Notes: a model not told the origin generated them from the letters alone. A DNA stretch of 28,016 nucleotides from an uncultured archaeon (GCA_964498505.1 CAZCGS010000001.1:1-28016); one strand, 5' to 3'. Positions 9,179-23,370 are shown, counted from the first letter of the stretch. Numbers and translations: made by a program.

Positions 9179-9904
9179 TTAGCATAAACTCTTTAGAAAC
9201 TCTCCGATTTCCCTTATGGATTTCACTCTTGAAAGAAGTTGATTAAAATCTTCTCTATTCCCATATTTTTTACGATAAGCTTCTATAAGCTTTTCATACC
9301 TATTTGGATCTGTTACAAAAGTGCAATCAATTACATGAAGTAAAATATATCTGTTAGTCTCTATTTGTAGTTCATTATCCTTGTCAATAGTGATAAAAAT
9401 CAGTTTAATATATTGAGTATTTTTGGTTTTCTCTAATTCTCGTTTCCAAAAGGCAGTTTCTGTCAATCTTTCCCTTAGGCTAGTTTTGCATGAGACAATA
9501 GCTTTTACCAAATTAGTTCCCTTCTCAACAATAACCATATCAACATCAGGGAAAATATCACTCCAATTACGAATTACAATCTGGTCTCTATGTTGAATTA
9601 ATGCAATATCACCCATTAATACCAAAAGTTTATTACCAAGCCCATTTTTTGCTATCACCTCTTGAATAGATTTAAAGACAGCATACTCATACAAAGAACC
9701 TTTGCATGTTTTCCATGCTTGATCTTTGCCTCTTTGCTCTTTGTAAAATCTGTTAAGTAAATTCCTCAATCTTCTTTCTGCAATAGAATCAAACTCCTGA
9801 ACAGCCCTTAGGTAATCTCCGTTATATTTCTCCTTCGCTATTGTATCATATCCTCTCTTCAATAAGTTTAAAACCTCTTCCTTACATTTAAATCCTCTTC
9901 TCAT
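9179..9904 (-). CDS. Type II restriction endonuclease, BsaWI/CCGG-family-like PD-(D/E)xK nuclease
   Basis: WKTCKGSLYE, FPDVD and AIVSCKTSLRER. Overlaps the MTase gene by 17 nt. GAGGT SD upstream. Confidence 0.75.
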   Translation of the reverse strand: MRRGFKCKEEVLNLLKRGYDTIAKEKYNGDYLRAVQEFDSIAERRLRNLLNRFYKEQRGKDQAWKTCKGSLYEYAVFKSIQEVIAKNGLGNKLLVLMGDIALIQHRDQIVIRNWSDIFPDVDMVIVEKGTNLVKAIVSCKTSLRERLTETAFWKRELEKTKNTQYIKLIFITIDKDNELQIETNRYILLHVIDCTFVTDPNRYEKLIEAYRKKYGNREDFNQLLSRVKSIREIGEFLKSLC

Positions 9905-10730
9905 CTTCTCTTACCTCAAATAGCCTTTTCTGGAACAATTTACCTTCTTTAGTTATACGCATTTTTGCCAACTTGCAATATTTCTCATCTATTTCCACTC
10001 CAATACCTCTACGATTTAATAAAGCACATGCTATAAGCGTTGTTCCACTTCCTAAAAACGGGTCTAATATTGTATCTCCAACAAAACTAAAAAGTTTTAT
10101 ACATCTTTTTGGTAATTCAATTGGAAATGGGGCAGGATGTCTTACCCTTTTTCTACTTTCTCCGGGAAAATTCCAGACACCTTGCGTCCATTCCATAAAT
10201 TCCTCCTTTGTGATATCTGAGATTCCGCCCCTTAATTTAGACCACCTTTTTTTATAAAAGATAATGATCACCTCCACTGGTGCTATCACATAAGGCGCCT
10301 TTGCACTTAGCCAAGATCCCCAAGCAGTTCTCCTTGAAATATTTCCCTCATTCCATATAATTGTAGAAAAATATTTCCATCCTACTTTCTTAGCAATTTC
10401 TACTATATCTGCATATACACTTTGAAATCCAGCTTCTGTTCTTCCCTTACTTTTGTCAAGTGGTATGTTCAGGCACAACCTACCATCAGGTTTTACTAAC
10501 TCTAAAGCCTTTGAAAGCCATTTCTTGGTAAATTCAAGATATTTTTCGTATGGTATATCGTCTTCAAAGGAGTTATAATGAATATCTACATTATACGGTG
10601 GTGAGGTAACAATTAAATCTACAGAATTTTTTTGTATAAGTTCTGTTTTTAAAAAATCATCATTAATGACTATAATTTTATTTTCCCAATTAAAATATAT
10701 CTTATCATTTTTCAAAATACCAAAAGGCAT
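9888..10730 (-). CDS. Beta-class amino DNA methyltransferase (N4-mC favoured by the SPPY motif)
   Basis: Motif IV TSPPY near the N-terminus, HPAPFP, and motif I DPFLGSGTT near the C-terminus. Confidence 0.92.
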   Translation of the reverse strand: MPFGILKNDKIYFNWENKIIVINDDFLKTELIQKNSVDLIVTSPPYNVDIHYNSFEDDIPYEKYLEFTKKWLSKALELVKPDGRLCLNIPLDKSKGRTEAGFQSVYADIVEIAKKVGWKYFSTIIWNEGNISRRTAWGSWLSAKAPYVIAPVEVIIIFYKKRWSKLRGGISDITKEEFMEWTQGVWNFPGESRKRVRHPAPFPIELPKRCIKLFSFVGDTILDPFLGSGTTLIACALLNRRGIGVEIDEKYCKLAKMRITKEGKLFQKRLFEVREDEKRI

Positions 10731-15270: not shown

Positions 15271-16023
15271 TTACTCCTCAACCCTCGGCGCCAGGATAAA
15301 AGCTAGTCTTATCTTATCCTTCAGGGAAAATTCTAACCTCAGCGGATAATCCTTGTTGAATTCCAGTTTTACCTTATCTGTAAGCTTCCCGGCCTTAAGC
15401 ATTTTTGAAAGATAATCTATGGAATATCTTGCCTCTACAGGTCCTGGAGTTGATATTGAATAGACATTCGGATTTCCCTCTTCAGCCTTTACCTCAGATA
15501 AACTTGAATCTCCTTCAGCTCTAAAAATTACCTGGTTTTTATCAACCTTTATCAAAACAGAATCGCTTATCAAGCCAGCGTTATCCAAACCCTCCCTAAG
15601 TAAGGAAGGTGTAATCTCAACCTTGGTGTCGAATTTAAATTTGCTTAAATCAGGCAGTTCCTGCTCTGAGATGGAAATAATGGGTAAGTGAAACTCCCTG
15701 GTAGAAGTTCCGGAAAGCACCATAACGAAGCGATCCTCATTCTCATCCAAAGTAAGGATTAACTTGTCTGTTGCTTTTGCCCTCTTTAGGAACTTAAGCA
15801 TGGTCTGCAGGTTTAAACCTATGGAGGTTTCTTTGTCGCATTTATAGCTTTCAAATGCGGTTGGAAACATGACAAAATCAGCTACCGCTATAACAGCTCT
15901 GTCTGGAGCCAGCAATGATATCCCTCCCTTTTCTAACTTGAAGGTTGCCTCATCTATCAACTCGGAAATTGCTATTAAACTCTCCTTCAGCAGGGATATA
16001 TCGTCTAAAACAGCCTTGAACAT
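15271..16023 (-). CDS. pcna: DNA polymerase sliding clamp PCNA
   Basis: 250 aa; ELIDEATF, DRAVIAV, ARYSIDYL, KDYPLRLEF and C-terminal FILAPRVE. Confidence 0.96.
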   Translation of the reverse strand: MFKAVLDDISLLKESLIAISELIDEATFKLEKGGISLLAPDRAVIAVADFVMFPTAFESYKCDKETSIGLNLQTMLKFLKRAKATDKLILTLDENEDRFVMVLSGTSTREFHLPIISISEQELPDLSKFKFDTKVEITPSLLREGLDNAGLISDSVLIKVDKNQVIFRAEGDSSLSEVKAEEGNPNVYSISTPGPVEARYSIDYLSKMLKAGKLTDKVKLEFNKDYPLRLEFSLKDKIRLAFILAPRVEE

Positions 16024-16032
16024 AAATAAACG

Positions 16033-16052
16033 ATATTTAAAAATTTAAATAA
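16033..16052. repeat. 20-bp palindromic promoter-like repeat, copy 1
   Basis: ATATTTAAAAATTTAAATAA, whose core TATTTAAA-AA-TTTAAATA is a perfect inverted repeat. Confidence 0.9.
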
Positions 16053-16122
16053 GATTTCACAAAAATGAGTCATCAAAGACCTATTCTATTAATGGTAAGA
16101 AATAAACCGGAGAAAAAGATTT

Positions 16123-16518
16123 TTATATCTTTTTCTCTTTAAATAGCATATATAAAGATAAAATACTTATAAAAAGTCCAAAAAGCATCATCGCGATTAC
16201 AGCTACTAAACTAATAAAATGAGTATATGCCTGAGTAAATATTAACAAGAAAGGCACTAAAGACACAAGTGAAAGTGCTATTCTTTTGTCTTTTTTCCAA
16301 TTTTTGGTTTTAGAAGTCCAATAAGCCAAATAAAATAACGAAACAAAAAATAATATCATAGAACAGAAACCCATAAAATTCCAATATATGTCAGATTGAC
16401 CAACTGGATATCCAAATGGCTTTAAAAAGGAATAATATACAAACTTTGGAAAGAAGATGCCCAATCCTAACATAAATGATATATATAATTGAAGCCTTCT
16501 AATTTTCCTTTTATCCAT
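16123..16518 (-). CDS. Small multi-pass membrane protein, hypothetical
   Basis: 131 aa with about four hydrophobic segments; AT-rich. Confidence 0.75.
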   Translation of the reverse strand: MDKRKIRRLQLYISFMLGLGIFFPKFVYYSFLKPFGYPVGQSDIYWNFMGFCSMILFFVSLFYLAYWTSKTKNWKKDKRIALSLVSLVPFLLIFTQAYTHFISLVAVIAMMLFGLFISILSLYMLFKEKKI

Positions 16519-16525
16519 AAGAAAG

Positions 16526-16545
16526 ATATTTGAAAATTTAAATAA
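16526..16545. repeat. 20-bp repeat, copy 2 (one mismatch)
   Basis: ATATTTGAAAATTTAAATAA, lying between the two divergent membrane genes. Confidence 0.85.
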
Positions 16546-16556
16546 AAAATAAAACT

Positions 16557-17048
16557 ATGAGCAGCAAAAAATATTCGGGAACTTTGATTTATTTGCTGTC
16601 CGCAGTAATAATGTTAGGCTTGGCAGTACTTGGACTGTACATTACTCCATTAATAATAATTTTGTTTGGAGGAATTTGGTCTTTCTATATTTTCTTATCA
16701 ATTGTCTCTTTAGGATTGGGATTTTTATTCAAAAAATTCTTAGAAAAAAGCAACACCAAAAGTAAAGATTTCGTTATTTTTCCGATGATTTTGTCGACGA
16801 TTGCCATACCTTACTTCGGATTTTTAAAAATAATAGAAACAATGATGGCTCCAATTATTCCTGAAAGCCCATCTGTATATCTCATAAAAAATTTTCCGAA
16901 TACAGATTTAGCCTTCATCTTGTTTTTGATATTTTTCAATTTTTGCTTCCTGTACAAATATGTAAGGCTTTCTGAAAGGAATTACTCTTATCTCTTCCTG
17001 TATGCAATACCGATTATTTTATATTTCGGAATTTCTCTGGCAATTTAA
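16557..17048 (+). CDS. Small multi-pass membrane protein, hypothetical
   Basis: 163 aa with about five hydrophobic segments. The stop codon abuts repeat copy 3. Confidence 0.75.
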   Translation: MSSKKYSGTLIYLLSAVIMLGLAVLGLYITPLIIILFGGIWSFYIFLSIVSLGLGFLFKKFLEKSNTKSKDFVIFPMILSTIAIPYFGFLKIIETMMAPIIPESPSVYLIKNFPNTDLAFILFLIFFNFCFLYKYVRLSERNYSYLFLYAIPIILYFGISLAI

Positions 17049-17067
17049 TATTTAAAAATTTAAATAA
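17048..17067. repeat. 20-bp repeat, copy 3 (identical to copy 1)
   Basis: ATATTTAAAAATTTAAATAA, ending 10 nt upstream of the rpo3 ATG. Confidence 0.9.
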
Positions 17068-17077
17068 AAACTTCTTA

Positions 17078-17659
17078 ATGGATATTAAGGTCCTTGAGGA
17101 TAATAGCCAGAAATTTGTGGTTGAGTTGAAAAATACAACGCCTTCCTTTGCAAATGCTATAAGAAGAATAATAATATCGGAAATTCCTGTTCTGGCGATA
17201 GAAGAGGTTGAGATAAGGGAAAATAACTCCGCATTGCAGGATGAACTGCTCGCAAACAGGCTTGGATTGATTCCCTTAAAATATCCGGTAAATAAGGTAG
17301 AAAAGCTTGACGGAGCAACCTTCTCTCTAAAAAAGGAAGGACCCTGCATAGTAAAGGCTGAGGATATAGTTTCTGATAACAAGGAAATTTCAGTTCTATA
17401 TCCTAACATACCCGTAGTTGTCCTGGCAGAAAAGCAAGAATTGGATTTAAGGATGGTGGCAAGGGTGAATAAGGGTAAGGAGCATGCCAAGTGGCAGGGA
17501 GGAATTGTTGGATATAAGAGTGATGAAAGCGAGAAAAATTTTGTGCTGGAAATAGAAAGCTGCTCAGCCTATACTCCAAAAGAGCTTTTCATAAAAAGCT
17601 TGGAAATACTTAGAGATAAGGCAAATTCCTTTGCAAAAGAGTTTGAGAAGTTAAAATAG
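17078..17659 (+). CDS. rpo3: DNA-directed RNA polymerase subunit D (Rpo3), short form without the ferredoxin-like domain
   Basis: FANAIRRIIISEIP, ENNSALQDELLANRLGLIP and GKEHAKWQ; 193 aa. Confidence 0.95.
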   Translation: MDIKVLEDNSQKFVVELKNTTPSFANAIRRIIISEIPVLAIEEVEIRENNSALQDELLANRLGLIPLKYPVNKVEKLDGATFSLKKEGPCIVKAEDIVSDNKEISVLYPNIPVVVLAEKQELDLRMVARVNKGKEHAKWQGGIVGYKSDESEKNFVLEIESCSAYTPKELFIKSLEILRDKANSFAKEFEKLK

Positions 17660-20600
17660 CTTCCTTTTTGTTAGAAGGATAGCACCGAATAAGGTTAAGG
17701 CTAAATAGGCGTACAAATCAATTTCATCCATTTTATGCATAATTATATTAATGTAGGTCTTCTTTTTAAACAAAATATTGCCAGAAAGGTCTTTAATTAT
17801 TATCTCTACCGGATAATATCCTGCTCTTCCGGCATTCTCTATCCACACATAGGTAGAGTTTGCTCCGTAAGAATCTCCTTGCATCCTAGGTATGGTTAAG
17901 GTAATTTGGGTATTTTTCTCACCAACATCTCCCAACCAAACCCAATTTTTTGCATACCCCCCAACTTCTATGCTTACATTTACTACTTTGCTTTCATTTC
18001 CCGGGTTTTGAATTAAAATTATGAATACTCTTTTATTCTTTGTTCCCAAAGGAACATTCGCTTGCCCCGGCTTCACCAAATAAAGTTCCTTTATTAATTC
18101 TCCGCAATCTATAGTTACTTCCTGATAAAAGTAAGGATTATAAATATCTCGCCATTTATGCTTTACATAAGGTTTATAAATCCCGTACCGGGTAAAATTT
18201 ATCACCATATAAACCCTATGAATGGTGCTTTCATTATCGCAGGAAAGCCTGGAGCTATCTATCAAAGCCTCCCAGTAGTTGGTTAGCCCGTTAAAGCTCA
18301 TATTTTCCCAAGGAATTTCTTCATCTTCTTCCTCTGTGTTTATATTGTACTTGGTAACCCTGAATTTTGCATAGGAATTGTTATCTGAAGCTAAAAACTC
18401 GAATGCCTGAATTTTTTCCCATTTATCGAAATCCATATCTCCAACCAAATAACCTTTAACCTTAATTTCCAAAGGCTCTGTCCTCATCACTATCTTAGGA
18501 ACCTTCCAATCAACCAAATCAATCGCGGCAACCCGGTATGAGACAAATCCTCCTTCGGCAATTGAGAAATTAAGTTTGTTTGGCGTCTGGTTATAAAAAC
18601 TTCCGTTAAAATAAGGCCAGAAGTAATGAAGTTCGGCTGTATAATTATACAAACCTAAAACCCAATGGCTTTTTCCTAAAAAGTAAGAGAAATTTCCAGT
18701 TTTGTTCTTAGGTAAATTTACCCAGGAAGTTGGGTCAGAATAGTTTAACGATACATGCAATTCTCTTGTAGGATTTTGGGAAGCTCTGGAAAATACCATT
18801 ATCCTTGTCTGGTTCCATAGCCTTCCGTGCCATCCTAAATTTCCATTGTTTGTAAAGTTTATCACATACCACACATTGTCCAAAGGATTCACCCATTTAT
18901 CCTTATCTGTTATGTTTATCGAATTTATGGTTCCGTTGAGCGTAATATTATAATCAAAGTATCCTGAGACATTATATTCGTTGGTTATTATGTATCTCAG
19001 GGAAGTCGTCTTATTCAGAAGTTTTAAATCGAGAATAAAGCAAGAAAAATTATATCCACTTAAGTTGCAATCGTCAGAAGAGAAAGGTTTTATTCCGCAA
19101 GACTCTATAGAACCGTTATAGGAACAATTTTGAGCGGAGATTTTGAACAACGGTTGGTTATTGGAAATTAGCTTGGCTTCCCCTTCTGCATAGGCAAATG
19201 TTGTATTGTTTATTATCTCAAAATCCCCTATTATTATATCCTCAACCTTAAACAAATCATTGTTTGTATCGAAATCGGAGATTACCTTCAAGCTGGAATT
19301 ATCCCTAACAATTATCTCCAAATCAAAGTACCCCAAATCTCCATCCGACATGGAGTTCGGAGCATTGAACCAGCACCTTGCAAAAAAAGTCCCTGTAGAT
19401 TTATTTGTAAGGTTCATTTCTTTATCAACACAATTTGTTACAGTATTTCCTCCATAAGTATTGCCTTCATCACTCCTAAATCTTAAGGTAATATAAAGCT
19501 TTTCTGAATCGCTGTAAATAGCATCCAAATCCTTTGCGGTTATGTTGAAATACATTATATCTGCGGTTTGAGGTGCATCCTTATTTCTATCTATGATTTT
19601 ATTTCCGTCCTTATTTCCGAACCAGGTAAGGTTTATACCGTAGGGCGGAGAATTTATTATTTTGTACCAGGAATCATAGCAGCTTTCACCTGGAAAACAA
19701 ACATCTAAAGCATCGGCCCAAAATTCTCCGTAAGAGTTATCATTGTCCGAATCAACATTTGTATCTCTAATATGCGGTATTATATTTAAAATTCCAGGCC
19801 CGAAAAGATATGCCTCCTTTTCCAAGGATAGGGTTTTCTGCTCTGAAACATCTAACTGGAACTCCGGAGTATCTAAAGTTTCCTCTGCCGAGCTTCCCGA
19901 AAAGTTAGCTCCAATAACAGCATGTTTTAAATCATAATCCGGCTCTGCCCTAACAGTTATATTAACCCTTGCTGTTTGGTTAACTCTAAGGTCATGGGTC
20001 AGAGAATGGGCTATGATTGCATCTATTTTTATTTCTGGGGTAGGGACTAGCTGGATGTATTTTACATTAGAAGAAAAATTTTTAATCGTAAAATTGTTAA
20101 TAGTAAAATCATCATCACTAGGAGAAGATGTTTCACCAATATAGACATGAGCGCTTCCATTAACATAAAACTCTATCCAGCCACTTGGCAAAACCCTTTC
20201 AAATTCAAAGGTAATGCTAAAGTTTCCCTTTGCATACCTTCCGTCCTTAGGACCTAAGGCAAAGCTTGCATTTTCCCATCTCGTCTCATCATAATCAGAA
20301 GTTATGTTAGAAAGCCAGTAATAGCAGGGAATTGTTGCGTTTGCTTTTATTATTTCTGCCTTTATTTTAGGCAACCCTGCTCCTATCCCTCCATCCAAAT
20401 AAGGAGGACCTGAGCTTTTGGCCATGCAGAATATCTCCCTTTTAGTGCTTAGCCGGGGTTCTAAAGAGCCTTTAAACTCTATTACAAAATCTCCGTTAGT
20501 GTCTGTGGTTGTTTCCTGATAGGTATTTGAGTTCTCACCATAATCAAATTGGGAAGAAAAGTTGTTTCCATTTAAGGAGCAATGAACTTTAGCATTAGAC

Positions 20601-22789
20601 AAAGAAGAATTTCCAGAAATCTTTTTTACCTTTCCCTCTATTTTAACATGATTCGTCTTTTTTGTTGGAATCGAAAAGGTTATGGAAAGGTCGTTAACCT
20701 TAAAAAGGTCGTCCTTGGTTACGGAATCGGTTAATCCTTCTTTATCCTTAGCCACAATCACAACATCATAATAGCCTAGCTCCGCATCATCCTTAGGGTT
20801 ATAATCATGATAGCAACTCCAGTTATTTGCGTCTAAGTAAGAGCATGTCATCTGGACCGAGTTTACAGGATTTCCATTTTGATCCTTTGCAATTGTTGTC
20901 CCGTCCGGTTCATAGATTGTTATATAAACTCCCTCCATATCCCAATTATTCTGATCATAAACCTCCACCGATACCCTAACTTTATCTGTTGTCCCTGAAG
21001 TTTCCTTATCCCTATCTATTTCATCATAATCTACCTCAACAAACTTAATAGCAGGATAGGCATACCACTTTCCAGAGTTACAGTACTCCTTTACTCCATC
21101 TCCGTCTATATCGCTTGAGGTTCCGTTTAAATAACAAGCATTATTCCAAACACAATCATCGCTATGGGCGCAACAGGCTTTAGTATCGCCCGAGCAGAAG
21201 CAGGCACTTAAATTGCAGGAGCAGGTTATAGCATATTCGTTAGCATCGTCTCCGCAGCAAGTATTTGGAGAGGAAGCACAATCTCCGCTAGAGCAACCCC
21301 ATTGCCAGTTTAAAGCACATGTCCCACAAGTGTTGGAATTTGTATCTGGATCATAATCCTTGTAAGTGCAAGATTCATACACCCCATTCCCATTTACATC
21401 AAGTACAATCGCCTCTTTGTAAATAGCGCCAACTTTTCCAGCACCAGAGCAATAATCTGAAATTAGACTTCCAGCAGACTTGTTAGTGCAATAATCAGGA
21501 TTTGAGTCGGAGCAATACCCTTCTTTCCCAGGCTTGCAGTATCCATTTATTGAAGAATCATCCCCATCGCTATCAAACGCTGCAACATCATAGTCCCTGC
21601 AATCTTTTATTCCAGTAATATAACTGCTCCCACTTGCACAGTATTCAGTTAGATTGTACCCACTGCAACTATCATAGTAGGTATTATAAGTACAAGAACC
21701 GTCAGAACAGGTAATATAATCATATATGTATCCTCCGGTTGTATAATCCCAGCAACCATCAGATTCATAAGTATTCTTTAATGCGCAATCTTCCACAATT
21801 GGACCCCATACATAAGTACAGGTGCTAGTATTTGGAATTACATAATAATCCTTATAAGCTCTAATCTCAGAGCCGTTACAGGTATAACTGCAAATATCAG
21901 ACCAATCGCAATTTTTAGTTGAGCAATATTCTGTTGTGTAAGTACAACTGCCTGCAGAATTTACATAATAATCTCTTTCTTGAGAAGAAGGATCGCTACC
22001 ACAGCCTTCTATATTTCCTCCGCCATACCATCCATCATAAGGATCATCACAGTCTTTTATTGAAGTAACTGAATATGTGCAAACACCGTCAGAACAAAAA
22101 TAATCCCAGTATTCTGCAGTTGGGTCATCCATATTTGAGCAACCAGGGCCATAATCTCCATAGTTACGCCAACCATCATAATTATCACAATTTGTGCAAT
22201 TCCCTGCATAATCGCAATTTCCGGAGCCATCACAATAACCCTGGCAGGAGTAGTTACCACCTGCACCATAACCGTTATCTCCAAGGGTCGAGCATTTAAA
22301 TGTAGGATTGCAAAGATGGTCCGAACCAAGGTTGGTATGGGTACAATAGGCACTGGGCTGTCCCGGATTCTTGCAAGTATCTTGAGTACATGGCTTACCA
22401 TCATCGCAATCGCTATCATCAAAACAAGCTATTTCCTGGCATTGGCAGGAAGCATCGCAGTAGTAACCGTTTTCACACTTAGAATTGTTTGGAGTAACTT
22501 CCCAACCAGAGTCTGTGCAGGAGCAATCGCAGCATCCATCGCAACCTGCCGGCTTATCTTCGGAATTTGCGTAATAGCATGCAGAAACACCCCAATCCGG
22601 AAAATAAGTGCAATTAGTAAAACCATAGCAACATTTATTGCTATCCCATGGTTTTATTGTAGAAGAAGGACATGAGATAGAGGAGCAGCTTCCCGAATAT
22701 ATCCTGCAAATATAATCGCATTTCGATATGTTCAAAAGAAGCAAGAAGCCGATAAAAATCAAAATTAGCCTTATCCTACCTCGAACCAT
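17651..22789 (-). CDS. Giant (1712 aa) membrane-anchored surface glycoprotein: signal peptide, Cys-rich N-terminal region, Ig-like modules, C-terminal TM helix plus basic tail
   Basis: Hydrophobic N-terminus; about 550 aa rich in Cys/Asp/Tyr; duplicated Ig-like module; many N-x-S/T sequons; ends YAYLALTLFGAILLTKRKLF. Confidence 0.88.
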   Translation of the reverse strand: MVRGRIRLILIFIGFLLLLNISKCDYICRIYSGSCSSISCPSSTIKPWDSNKCCYGFTNCTYFPDWGVSACYYANSEDKPAGCDGCCDCSCTDSGWEVTPNNSKCENGYYCDASCQCQEIACFDDSDCDDGKPCTQDTCKNPGQPSAYCTHTNLGSDHLCNPTFKCSTLGDNGYGAGGNYSCQGYCDGSGNCDYAGNCTNCDNYDGWRNYGDYGPGCSNMDDPTAEYWDYFCSDGVCTYSVTSIKDCDDPYDGWYGGGNIEGCGSDPSSQERDYYVNSAGSCTYTTEYCSTKNCDWSDICSYTCNGSEIRAYKDYYVIPNTSTCTYVWGPIVEDCALKNTYESDGCWDYTTGGYIYDYITCSDGSCTYNTYYDSCSGYNLTEYCASGSSYITGIKDCRDYDVAAFDSDGDDSSINGYCKPGKEGYCSDSNPDYCTNKSAGSLISDYCSGAGKVGAIYKEAIVLDVNGNGVYESCTYKDYDPDTNSNTCGTCALNWQWGCSSGDCASSPNTCCGDDANEYAITCSCNLSACFCSGDTKACCAHSDDCVWNNACYLNGTSSDIDGDGVKEYCNSGKWYAYPAIKFVEVDYDEIDRDKETSGTTDKVRVSVEVYDQNNWDMEGVYITIYEPDGTTIAKDQNGNPVNSVQMTCSYLDANNWSCYHDYNPKDDAELGYYDVVIVAKDKEGLTDSVTKDDLFKVNDLSITFSIPTKKTNHVKIEGKVKKISGNSSLSNAKVHCSLNGNNFSSQFDYGENSNTYQETTTDTNGDFVIEFKGSLEPRLSTKREIFCMAKSSGPPYLDGGIGAGLPKIKAEIIKANATIPCYYWLSNITSDYDETRWENASFALGPKDGRYAKGNFSITFEFERVLPSGWIEFYVNGSAHVYIGETSSPSDDDFTINNFTIKNFSSNVKYIQLVPTPEIKIDAIIAHSLTHDLRVNQTARVNITVRAEPDYDLKHAVIGANFSGSSAEETLDTPEFQLDVSEQKTLSLEKEAYLFGPGILNIIPHIRDTNVDSDNDNSYGEFWADALDVCFPGESCYDSWYKIINSPPYGINLTWFGNKDGNKIIDRNKDAPQTADIMYFNITAKDLDAIYSDSEKLYITLRFRSDEGNTYGGNTVTNCVDKEMNLTNKSTGTFFARCWFNAPNSMSDGDLGYFDLEIIVRDNSSLKVISDFDTNNDLFKVEDIIIGDFEIINNTTFAYAEGEAKLISNNQPLFKISAQNCSYNGSIESCGIKPFSSDDCNLSGYNFSCFILDLKLLNKTTSLRYIITNEYNVSGYFDYNITLNGTINSINITDKDKWVNPLDNVWYVINFTNNGNLGWHGRLWNQTRIMVFSRASQNPTRELHVSLNYSDPTSWVNLPKNKTGNFSYFLGKSHWVLGLYNYTAELHYFWPYFNGSFYNQTPNKLNFSIAEGGFVSYRVAAIDLVDWKVPKIVMRTEPLEIKVKGYLVGDMDFDKWEKIQAFEFLASDNNSYAKFRVTKYNINTEEEDEEIPWENMSFNGLTNYWEALIDSSRLSCDNESTIHRVYMVINFTRYGIYKPYVKHKWRDIYNPYFYQEVTIDCGELIKELYLVKPGQANVPLGTKNKRVFIILIQNPGNESKVVNVSIEVGGYAKNWVWLGDVGEKNTQITLTIPRMQGDSYGANSTYVWIENAGRAGYYPVEIIIKDLSGNILFKKKTYINIIMHKMDEIDLYAYLALTLFGAILLTKRKLF

Positions 22790-23367
22790 ATTTTATTTTT
22801 AATTCCATAGCCTAAAAAATCTTTACATCGGAAGGAAAATAGAGGTTCTTTAACAAAAAGCATGGTGCAGTTTCCTAAGGTTGAGTTCCAAAATTCAAAA
22901 ATTTCATCTCTATCGGAAGTGTTGAAAGTAAAATAAACAGTTTTTCCGGCTTGGTCAAACTCTGCCTTTATATTATCTTTGCATCTCCAAAATGATTCGG
23001 TTCCGCATTCGCAATCAAGGATGGATGAAATTCCTAAGGAGTAAAATTTTAAAAGATAGGTAAGGTTTTGAGTTCCCTCAATGCTCGGCTTTCCATAAGG
23101 ATTTGCTTCCTCTTTATTTCTTCCCGCAAATACATAACCGAAACAAACTTTTATTCCCTCTCCATTGCAAAGGTAGCAAACTCTTTGGTTTTCAATCTCC
23201 GCACCCTTAGGAGAGCAATTAATTCCCCTTAGGTAAAGGTTAACATATCCATCCATGTAGGAGGTAAATTTTAATTCCTTAGGACCTTTTTGAAGCTCGG
23301 AATTCAATTTCAAGCCTATCAAAAAGAGAAGGAAAAATAGTAAGGCCAGAGCAATCTTTTTTTCCAT
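22771..23367 (-). CDS. Secreted or N-anchored Cys-containing hypothetical protein, 198 aa
   Basis: MEKK followed by a hydrophobic stretch. Overlaps the giant gene by 19 nt and starts 3 nt after the rpl40e stop. Confidence 0.78.
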   Translation of the reverse strand: MEKKIALALLFFLLFLIGLKLNSELQKGPKELKFTSYMDGYVNLYLRGINCSPKGAEIENQRVCYLCNGEGIKVCFGYVFAGRNKEEANPYGKPSIEGTQNLTYLLKFYSLGISSILDCECGTESFWRCKDNIKAEFDQAGKTVYFTFNTSDRDEIFEFWNSTLGNCTMLFVKEPLFSFRCKDFLGYGIKNKIWFEVG

Positions 23368-23370
23368 AAT

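Follow-up and report, generated by a model that had tools for sequence, protein, structure and literature searches.

We analysed a 28,016-nt window, the whole of contig 1 (CAZCGS010000001.1:1-28016) of a genome bin, G000 (GCA_964498505.1), from an uncultured small-genome archaeon of hydrothermal vents. The bin amounts to 685,944 bp in 81 contigs, with 37% GC, and is 84% complete. Our subject is the interval between pcna and rpoD, the gene for RNA polymerase subunit D/Rpo3 (named rpo3 in an earlier, sequence-only reading of the same DNA). Two small genes, here called A and B, lie in this interval together with three copies, R1 to R3, of a 20-bp repeat, ATATTTAAAAATTTAAATAA (the 20-mer). Below, G001 is a sister species of the same genus, L numbers are fetched loci and X1 to X4 are runs.

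The left conserved flank is pcna (15271..16023, minus strand; 250 aa, Pfam PCNA_N and PCNA_C), with 96% identity to its G001 orthologue. It is followed by R1 (16033..16052), an exact copy whose minus face is the predicted pcna promoter and whose plus face is orphaned, directed toward the 3' end of gene A. A 70-nt 3' tail of unit A (16053..16122, minus), which carries minus-strand T-runs past the gene A stop and is missing from every empty allele described below, separates R1 from gene A itself (16123..16518, minus; 131 aa, 3-4 hydrophobic helices), a strict orphan. R2 (16526..16545) has one mismatch, A>G at 16532, and is the predicted divergent promoter of gene A and gene B (16557..17048, plus; 163 aa, 4-5 hydrophobic helices). 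The gene B product stops short exactly at R3 (17048..17067), again an exact copy; its plus face is the predicted rpoD promoter and its orphaned minus face looks toward the 3' end of gene B. The right conserved flank is rpoD (17078..17659, plus; 193 aa, Pfam RNA_pol_L and RNA_pol_A_bac), 85% identical to the G001 orthologue. Both A and B encode small multi-helix membrane proteins without a significant Pfam match, at 27% and 31% GC, respectively, compared with 41% and 39% in the pcna and rpoD flanks. Because gene A lies on the minus strand and gene B on the plus strand, R2 is itself a divergent promoter arrangement. A plus-strand open reading frame of 25 codons downstream of R1 (16066-16143) is probably not a gene.

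The three copies lie in direct orientation, exact at 16033 and 17048 and with one mismatch at 16526, at spacings of 493 and 522 bp. Each is an imperfect palindrome of the form A-TATTTAAA-AA-TTTAAATA-A, with 8-nt arms around a 2-nt centre. Identity runs beyond the 20 nt, to a G at -1 in copies 1 and 2 and to AAA at +1 to +3 in copies 2 and 3; the duplicated stretch is thus 20 nt when counted as exact and 21-24 nt when the shared flanking bases are included. Pattern searching confirmed the positions and spacings given by the sequence-only reading, as well as a stop codon of the second gene flush with the repeat (the last A of the TAA at 17046-17048 is also the base with which R3 begins). Its 20-bp palindrome stands as three copies, although the palindrome is imperfect and the identity slightly longer, and its one membrane-protein gene per interval holds for A and B, the minus-strand orientation of A having been omitted.

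Besides these copies, the window contains no further match at ≤3 mismatches (0.17 expected), and three matches were obtained in none of 100 shuffles. Across the whole genome, only these three copies occur at ≤1 mismatch, with one more site at 2 mismatches. When 589 crudely delimited promoters were compared with the 20-mer in register, the four local ones showed 0-1 mismatches, none showed 2, six showed 3, and the median was 8; only 8 of 173,166 promoter pairs lay within ≤2 mismatches of each other, and two of these eight belong to this locus. The genome-wide count suggested by the sequence-only reading shows the 20-mer to be uncommon at promoters elsewhere. All-AT 20-mers very rarely recur exactly in G000, where local non-coding direct repeats of ≥14 nt are also few. 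The three copies are true duplicates, not convergent promoters. Among the 20 relatives searched, G001 has a single copy in the same place, two others have singletons with one mismatch, and 17 of the 19 relatives other than G001 have none. A scan for the bare 20-mer in GTDB genomes and IMG/VR returned at least 120 and 72 stretches, respectively, each a lone copy in an unrelated AT-rich organism; such chance words carry no information on the cassettes. As a separate observation, run X1 holds a 5360-bp contig outside the bin, at a depth of 20.8 compared with 19.7 for the window, in which two 20-mer-like words stand 197 bp apart; this contig could be an unbinned part of the G000 genome with a related promoter pair.

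Comparison with other genomes and assemblies revealed the locus without its cargo. The pcna-rpoD spacer of G001 is 38 bp long and contains one exact 20-mer, and homology to G000 ends at the repeat edges. For other assemblies, we compared contigs encoding an identical PCNA or RpoD protein. Filled contigs, with three copies including the G variant of R2, were L031-L037, L042 and L245, while empty contigs with a 39-bp spacer were L039, L041, L043, L044 and L048, each reading CAT, AAATAAA[C/T]G, the 20-mer, AAACTTCTTA and ATG. Slightly more distant strains are likewise empty, L246-248, L351, L352 and L354 with an exact copy and L353 with a 21-nt variant, R'. Sample ERZ27248082 contains both allele forms on separate contigs. 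Among Logan contigs, run X3 has a joint from 16032 to 17048 that skips 1015 bp at depth 11, with cargo contigs at depth 3-5, and run X4 has the empty form at depth 26 and cargo at depth 2-6; several contigs end within R1, as expected for a branching site. Precise empty and filled alleles thus coexist in single samples. The variable segment is 1015 bp long and may be written as 16053..17067 or, equivalently, 16033-17047, because 20 nt fit either side of the joint. Skips of 493 or 522 bp, circles and back-joints were all absent from the Logan contigs of four runs, which drop rare variants, and in the G000 population the A+B block behaves as one 1015-bp indel.

Other cargo was found at the same site. 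In a sister lineage (L325, L326 and L249; PCNA 98%), the order is pcna, R', gene B with 1-2 frameshifts, a promoter of another kind, a 507-aa gene, a further promoter and rpoD. The 507-aa product is a zinc-ribbon/multi-helix protein whose gene occurs in neither G000 nor G001, and gene A is missing from this lineage. The presence of B without A there indicates that A and B are separate indels and that the site takes further genes. In L050, 207 nt of unrelated, stop-rich DNA (cargo X) abut the 20-mer and a normal rpoD-side flank; the same junction also appears as a loose end in run X4, which may or may not be a separate sample from L050. Cargo X gave no match in G000, the fetched loci, 21 relatives, viral contigs or Rfam. 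Four states therefore exist between pcna and rpoD (empty, A+B, B pseudogene with the 507-aa gene, and X), and junctions fall at repeat edges in at least four contexts (R1|A-tail, R'|B, B|R3 and X|R). On the far side of rpoD, a gene for a 1712-aa Cys-rich surface protein and an adjoining 198-aa gene (window 17659-23370) are not present in L351, a strain of ~95% identity, in which a PCMT gene follows rpoD after 213 bp; an 8-bp microhomology, CTTCCTTT, is all that was found near the boundaries of the missing genes. Given this difference, rpoD has variable cargo on either side.

The position of the 20-mer suggests what it does. Repeat centres lie 17.5-21.5 nt from four start codons, namely those of pcna (16023), gene A (16518), gene B (16557) and rpoD (17078), in agreement with the 17-22 nt originally reported. 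Measured from the half-sites, the left centre is 26.5 nt from the ATG of gene B and 25.5 nt from that of rpoD, and the right centre is 24.5 nt from that of pcna and 22.5 nt from that of gene A. Genome-wide, the sequences upstream of ATGs are AT-rich from position -29 to position -15: T is favoured at -27 to -25 and again at -19 to -17, and A at -24 to -21. An AT block so near the ATG leaves no space for a leader, a pattern that characterises TATA promoters of leaderless mRNAs. Nearly half of the divergent gene pairs (46 of 102) have a spacer of 22-58 bp between start codons, peaking at 25-31 bp and heterogeneous in sequence, and such tight spacers imply crossed or overlapping TATA elements. 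By this geometry, the 20-mer would consist of two back-to-back TATA-like half-sites forming a bidirectional core promoter, and each gene would use its distal half-site, with transcription predicted to start at or beside the ATG. An archaeal core promoter is expected to have its TATA element centred ~26 nt before the transcription start, and both the geometry and the genome-wide profile are in line with this. In Pyrococcus furiosus, differential RNA sequencing has shown that transcription starts in both directions from symmetric TATA elements (PMC6640164). The two cases share a symmetric AT-rich TATA element serving both directions (a prediction in ours), but in P. furiosus one TATA element gives starts 49-50 bp apart (PMC6640164), whereas at our locus starts ~40 bp apart would be expected from two half-sites separated by 10 bp. 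The unused faces of R1 (plus; 16033-16143) and R3 (minus; 16950-17067) aim at the 3' ends of A and B; if active, they would yield RNA antisense to both accessory genes, and a built-in damper on the cargo is possible.

Gene A had no homologue in 41 related genomes or among 5.8 billion proteins. Homologues of gene B, with 63-71% identity and 179-183 aa, stand divergently beside polB in other lineages without flanking repeats, and more distant ones of 192 aa occur in another genus; a protein atlas gave nothing useful for this gene. In those lineages (L334, L337 and L339), the pairing with polB is conserved and the divergent spacer is 27-31 bp. In G000 (C37) and G001 (C26), the gene preceding polB, in place of gene B, encodes TATA-binding protein (TBP). 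The G000 gene B product ends in ...ISLAI, 7-15 residues before the ends of its homologues. This truncation at R3 looks like the scar of an illegitimate junction and points to capture, not to an ancient arrangement.

In a tree of pcna plus rpoD, the empty state occupies the root (G001), the next branch (L353) and positions across the crown, the form with B and the 507-aa gene is one branch, and the AB form sits at a tip within a clade of 99/99 support that also contains empty alleles ~0.5% away. Only two changes are needed if the empty state is ancestral. We infer that it is, the direction of gain resting on this parsimony together with the truncated end of gene B. Within the species, the pcna tree is poorly resolved, with AB and empty alleles interspersed. 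The two filled lineages share 95.1% identity in gene B, compared with 91.5-92.4% in up422, pcna and rpoD. This excess identity, found despite the pseudogene state in L325, hints, though not decisively, that the unit was exchanged later.

We consider it likely that these patterns reflect repeated insertion with duplication of a 20-24-bp promoter target, combined with precise loss between copies, which would make the locus a presence/absence hotspot with differing cargo. Initially, the 20-mer would have been the core of a compact bidirectional promoter shared by pcna and rpoD, with essentially leaderless mRNAs. In one sublineage, this unique 20-24-bp target would then have been duplicated twice in direct orientation, bringing in one membrane-protein gene each time, probably B first and A second. 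As a result, pcna, A, B and rpoD would each retain a half-site ~22-27 nt ahead of its start codon. Recombination or slippage between the direct copies would thereafter permit precise loss, and such loss would account for a 1015-bp block that segregates as a presence/absence polymorphism. As for the molecular route, we infer either a target-duplicating insertion, for instance through staggered breaks with fill-in, or recombination of DNA already carrying the 20-mer.

The evolutionary part of the sequence-only reading is largely borne out. Its expectation that removing 1015 bp would restore a 39-bp divergent promoter matches G001 (38 nt), many conspecific contigs and the 1015-bp skip in X3, and empty sites and different cassettes in relatives were both found. 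Its proposal of serial gene capture stands as far as separate units, empty sites and other cargo are concerned; A+B varies as one block, and an active dedicated mechanism is no more than a possibility. Of the excised junctions and circles it thought worth seeking, the 1015-bp skip joint was recovered and no circle appeared in the contigs.

The closest published kin is the insertion with long target duplication known for restriction-modification genes of bacteria, where duplications exceed 30 bp (46-423 bp) (PMC2853133). Furuta et al. (2010) reported that no archaeal case survived their screen (PMC2853133). As in those cases, the genes here lie between direct duplications of a target that is genome-unique and is single-copy in the related empty allele, and the insert lacks an integrase or transposase and has a GC content below that of the genome; the route is unexplained in the published cases too. 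The differences are an archaeal host, small membrane-protein cargo, a target duplicated twice in series, and a target that is a predicted bidirectional core promoter, so that every copy is put to use.

Several observations weigh against insertion with target duplication as we propose it. The duplication of 20-24 bp falls short of the published >30-bp criterion (PMC2853133). In the L325 lineage, serial duplication is less clear-cut, the copies after gene B and before rpoD being only weakly recognisable. Neither an A-only nor a B-only allele bounded by exact repeats was seen in the G000 population, nor was a circle, as judged from contigs, not reads. One early gain followed by several losses would also fit, since repeat-mediated loss is easy. 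Promoter use and leaderless starts are predicted from geometry only. Finally, with the bin at 84% completeness, a recombinase acting in trans could be missing from it.

The alternative that fares best, though we think it unlikely, is one of loss only, in which an arrangement R-A-R-B-R (or R-B-R) is old in the clade, the empty sites are independent deletions and no capture takes place at present. Short direct repeats commonly lose the DNA between them without any recombinase. In keeping with such a history, two lineages that differ by 8% share both the position of gene B and its truncated end, and only the whole 1015-bp block varies in the G000 population. The tree, however, would require at least 3-5 independent identical losses compared with two gains, and the two deepest branches, G001 and L353, are empty with both original flanks kept. 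Moreover, gene A is an orphan restricted to one tip haplogroup, gene B has diverged less than its flanks, and the original tripling of the promoter would still need explaining.

A second alternative makes the 20-mer the attachment site of a dedicated site-specific system, integron-like or resembling the integrative mobile elements exploiting Xer recombination (IMEX), with a trans-encoded recombinase and circular one-gene units. The exact junctions at repeat edges in at least four independent contexts would suit such a system, as would a site that is both genome-unique and palindromic; serial integration would give three direct copies with units in either orientation, and tyrosine recombinases are present in 21 of 41 relatives, although the G001 copy looks broken. 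On the other side, Pfam searches found no recombinase encoded in the window, as the sequence-only reading had stated, and the search it recommended for a tyrosine recombinase came back negative: G000 gave no match to PF00589 or to the serine recombinase family PF00239, whereas control searches worked (14 of 14 positive for PF00589). The insert holds only genes A and B, with no mobility gene by Pfam, no tRNA, no Rfam match and no attC-like fold, and the ends of units A and B have no terminal inverted repeats. The 2-nt centre of the palindrome compares with 6-8 nt in the cores of tyrosine recombinase sites, no circle joints appeared in the Logan contigs of the four runs, and the truncation of gene B at its junction looks illegitimate and unlike a clean att exchange. 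For these reasons we regard a dedicated system as quite unlikely.

The locus was also compared with known families. Integron arrays, including archaeal ones, are alike in their single-gene units, recurring site, fixed platform, presence/absence variation and an order that suggests serial addition. They differ in having IntI, for which neither the window nor the 84%-complete bin offered a PF00589 match, in a folded attC of 55-140 nt compared with the 20-bp AT palindrome here, and in cassettes that are mostly promoterless, in one orientation and under a common promoter, Pc, whereas A and B are divergent and each lies 22-27 nt from its own half-site. The original judgement that the repeat does not resemble attC holds, given its 20 nt, a hairpin like that of shuffled sequence and the absence of an Rfam match. 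IMEX at dif, such as CTXphi (PMC4246890), are likewise recombinase-free; they regenerate a unique palindromic host site, and serial integration gives site-element-site series. A dif-type core has ~11-nt arms and a 6-8-nt centre, in contrast to 8-nt arms and a 2-nt centre here. Further differences are that no Xer-type recombinase was found in G000 and that our site is a predicted promoter, not a dimer-resolution site.

Three other candidates were tried and rejected. A cruciform or hairpin role for the palindrome was dismissed because the fold (-2.4 kcal/mol; z -0.8 to 0.4 against shuffles) is no better than that of shuffled sequence. Insertion sequences, miniature inverted-repeat transposable elements and casposons do not fit, in view of the missing terminal inverted repeats, TnpB-like matches in G000 that stay below the family cut-off, a Cas1 gene that lies in a cas operon, and a 20-nt duplication compared with 2-15 bp. 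Cas1 was weighed as well, given that a palindromic repeat is duplicated both during CRISPR adaptation and by casposons; the operon is ordinary and units of 473-502 bp misfit the spacer ruler, which makes this very remote. The operon in question, at C69:2-1938, comprises the C-terminal part of Cas1, Cas2 and a Cas7-like gene and contains the sole Cas1 of G000; no CRISPR array was found in the bin.

A bolder extension of target-duplicating insertion, which we offer as a long shot, would make the 20-mer the landing pad of promoter-targeted gene capture in small-genome archaea, perhaps marked by bound TBP and transcription factor B. Single genes, truncated pieces like gene B among them, would enter at the double TATA element, which would be copied at each event, with newcomers expressed at once, the essential neighbours at no time silenced, and clean excision or transfer between lineages later. 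It would also take in the gene B unit found in two non-sister lineages and a repeat-bracketed gene elsewhere in G000. The latter lies in an insertion at C21:4957-7011 (compare L343), where a 189-aa gene of unknown function and a 428-aa gene separate a core gene from the alanyl-tRNA synthetase gene, the two being directly adjacent in G001. The 428-aa product has a Schlafen/AlbA_2-HATPase_c_4-HTH architecture, and a perfect direct repeat of 28 bp, TTAACTTACTTAACGAACTTAACGAAAG, stands on either side of its gene, at C21:5587 and 6948. This is the second accessory insertion within a divergent promoter spacer. A look-up of the neighbouring C21 protein, aimed at a polymorphism within the population, turned up no record.

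Allelic exchange alone, as in the minimal mobile elements of Neisseria, would move the cargoes by homologous recombination in the flanking genes and leave the 20-mer uninvolved. The Neisseria elements share with this locus a conserved gene pair, strain-varying cassettes and a lack of mobility genes, and differ in that recombination in the flanks produces no target duplication, whereas the cargo here is bounded by target copies. Four cargo states between the same two conserved genes speak for such exchange, as do the interspersed AB and empty alleles of the within-species pcna tree, an interspersion that recombination would be expected to give. Such exchange would nevertheless explain spread, not origin, and is compatible with target-duplicating insertion as its mode of spread; on its own it leaves the three direct copies, the repeat-edge junctions and the single-copy empty sites unaccounted for, and we give it very little credence. 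Convergence of three strong promoters on an AT-rich consensus, the alternative named in the sequence-only reading, can be practically discounted, because only the four local promoters fall within 2 mismatches of the 20-mer (the median being 8), and because the identity reaches 21-24 nt and the empty allele has exactly one copy, even though the word sits in the genome-wide promoter register and loose 3-mismatch variants occur at six other promoters.

Some other features of the bin were recorded along the way. The window also encodes a type II restriction-modification pair at 9179-10730, consisting of a BsaWI-like endonuclease and an N6/N4 DNA methylase. A perfect palindrome, TAGTTTACAGTGTAAACTA, is found in intergenic positions at C10:2029, 2237, 4965 and 5061 and at C62:2908, with tandem AAAATGAA-rich repeats beside it at C10:2049-2200; it is operator-like and may mark the regulon of a local transcription factor. 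In this AT-rich genome there is also a GC-rich repeat family (GGGGGCGAAGCCCCCTTCC, GGGGGTTTGGAAAGGG), often at contig ends and near tRNA-like words, with examples at C3:57, C23:746-860, C24:4374-4510 and C74:1946-2065. Perfect 55-bp repeats 155 bp apart on C3, C5, C10, C28, C31 and C42 were set aside, as they flank 100-N gaps and are k-mer scaffolding artefacts.

Small-genome archaea of the DPANN type have very compact genomes with few recognisable mobile elements and with surface and membrane genes that vary widely among strains. Little is understood of how such densely packed genomes gain and lose genes without harm to essential neighbours, and this locus provides a clean natural example. 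Its filled, empty and alternative alleles are met in the same samples, and its accessory genes sit within a predicted 39-bp promoter shared by two essential genes; as this promoter is copied, no gene would lose its own. The locus is probably a live hotspot of gene gain and loss, whether through an active dedicated process or through rare repair-type events combined with easy loss. The finding would extend insertion with long target duplication from bacterial restriction-modification genes to archaea and to ordinary cargo. With a 20-bp site, known junctions and populations that hold both alleles, it also offers a testable substrate for tracing the enzyme or repair pathway responsible.

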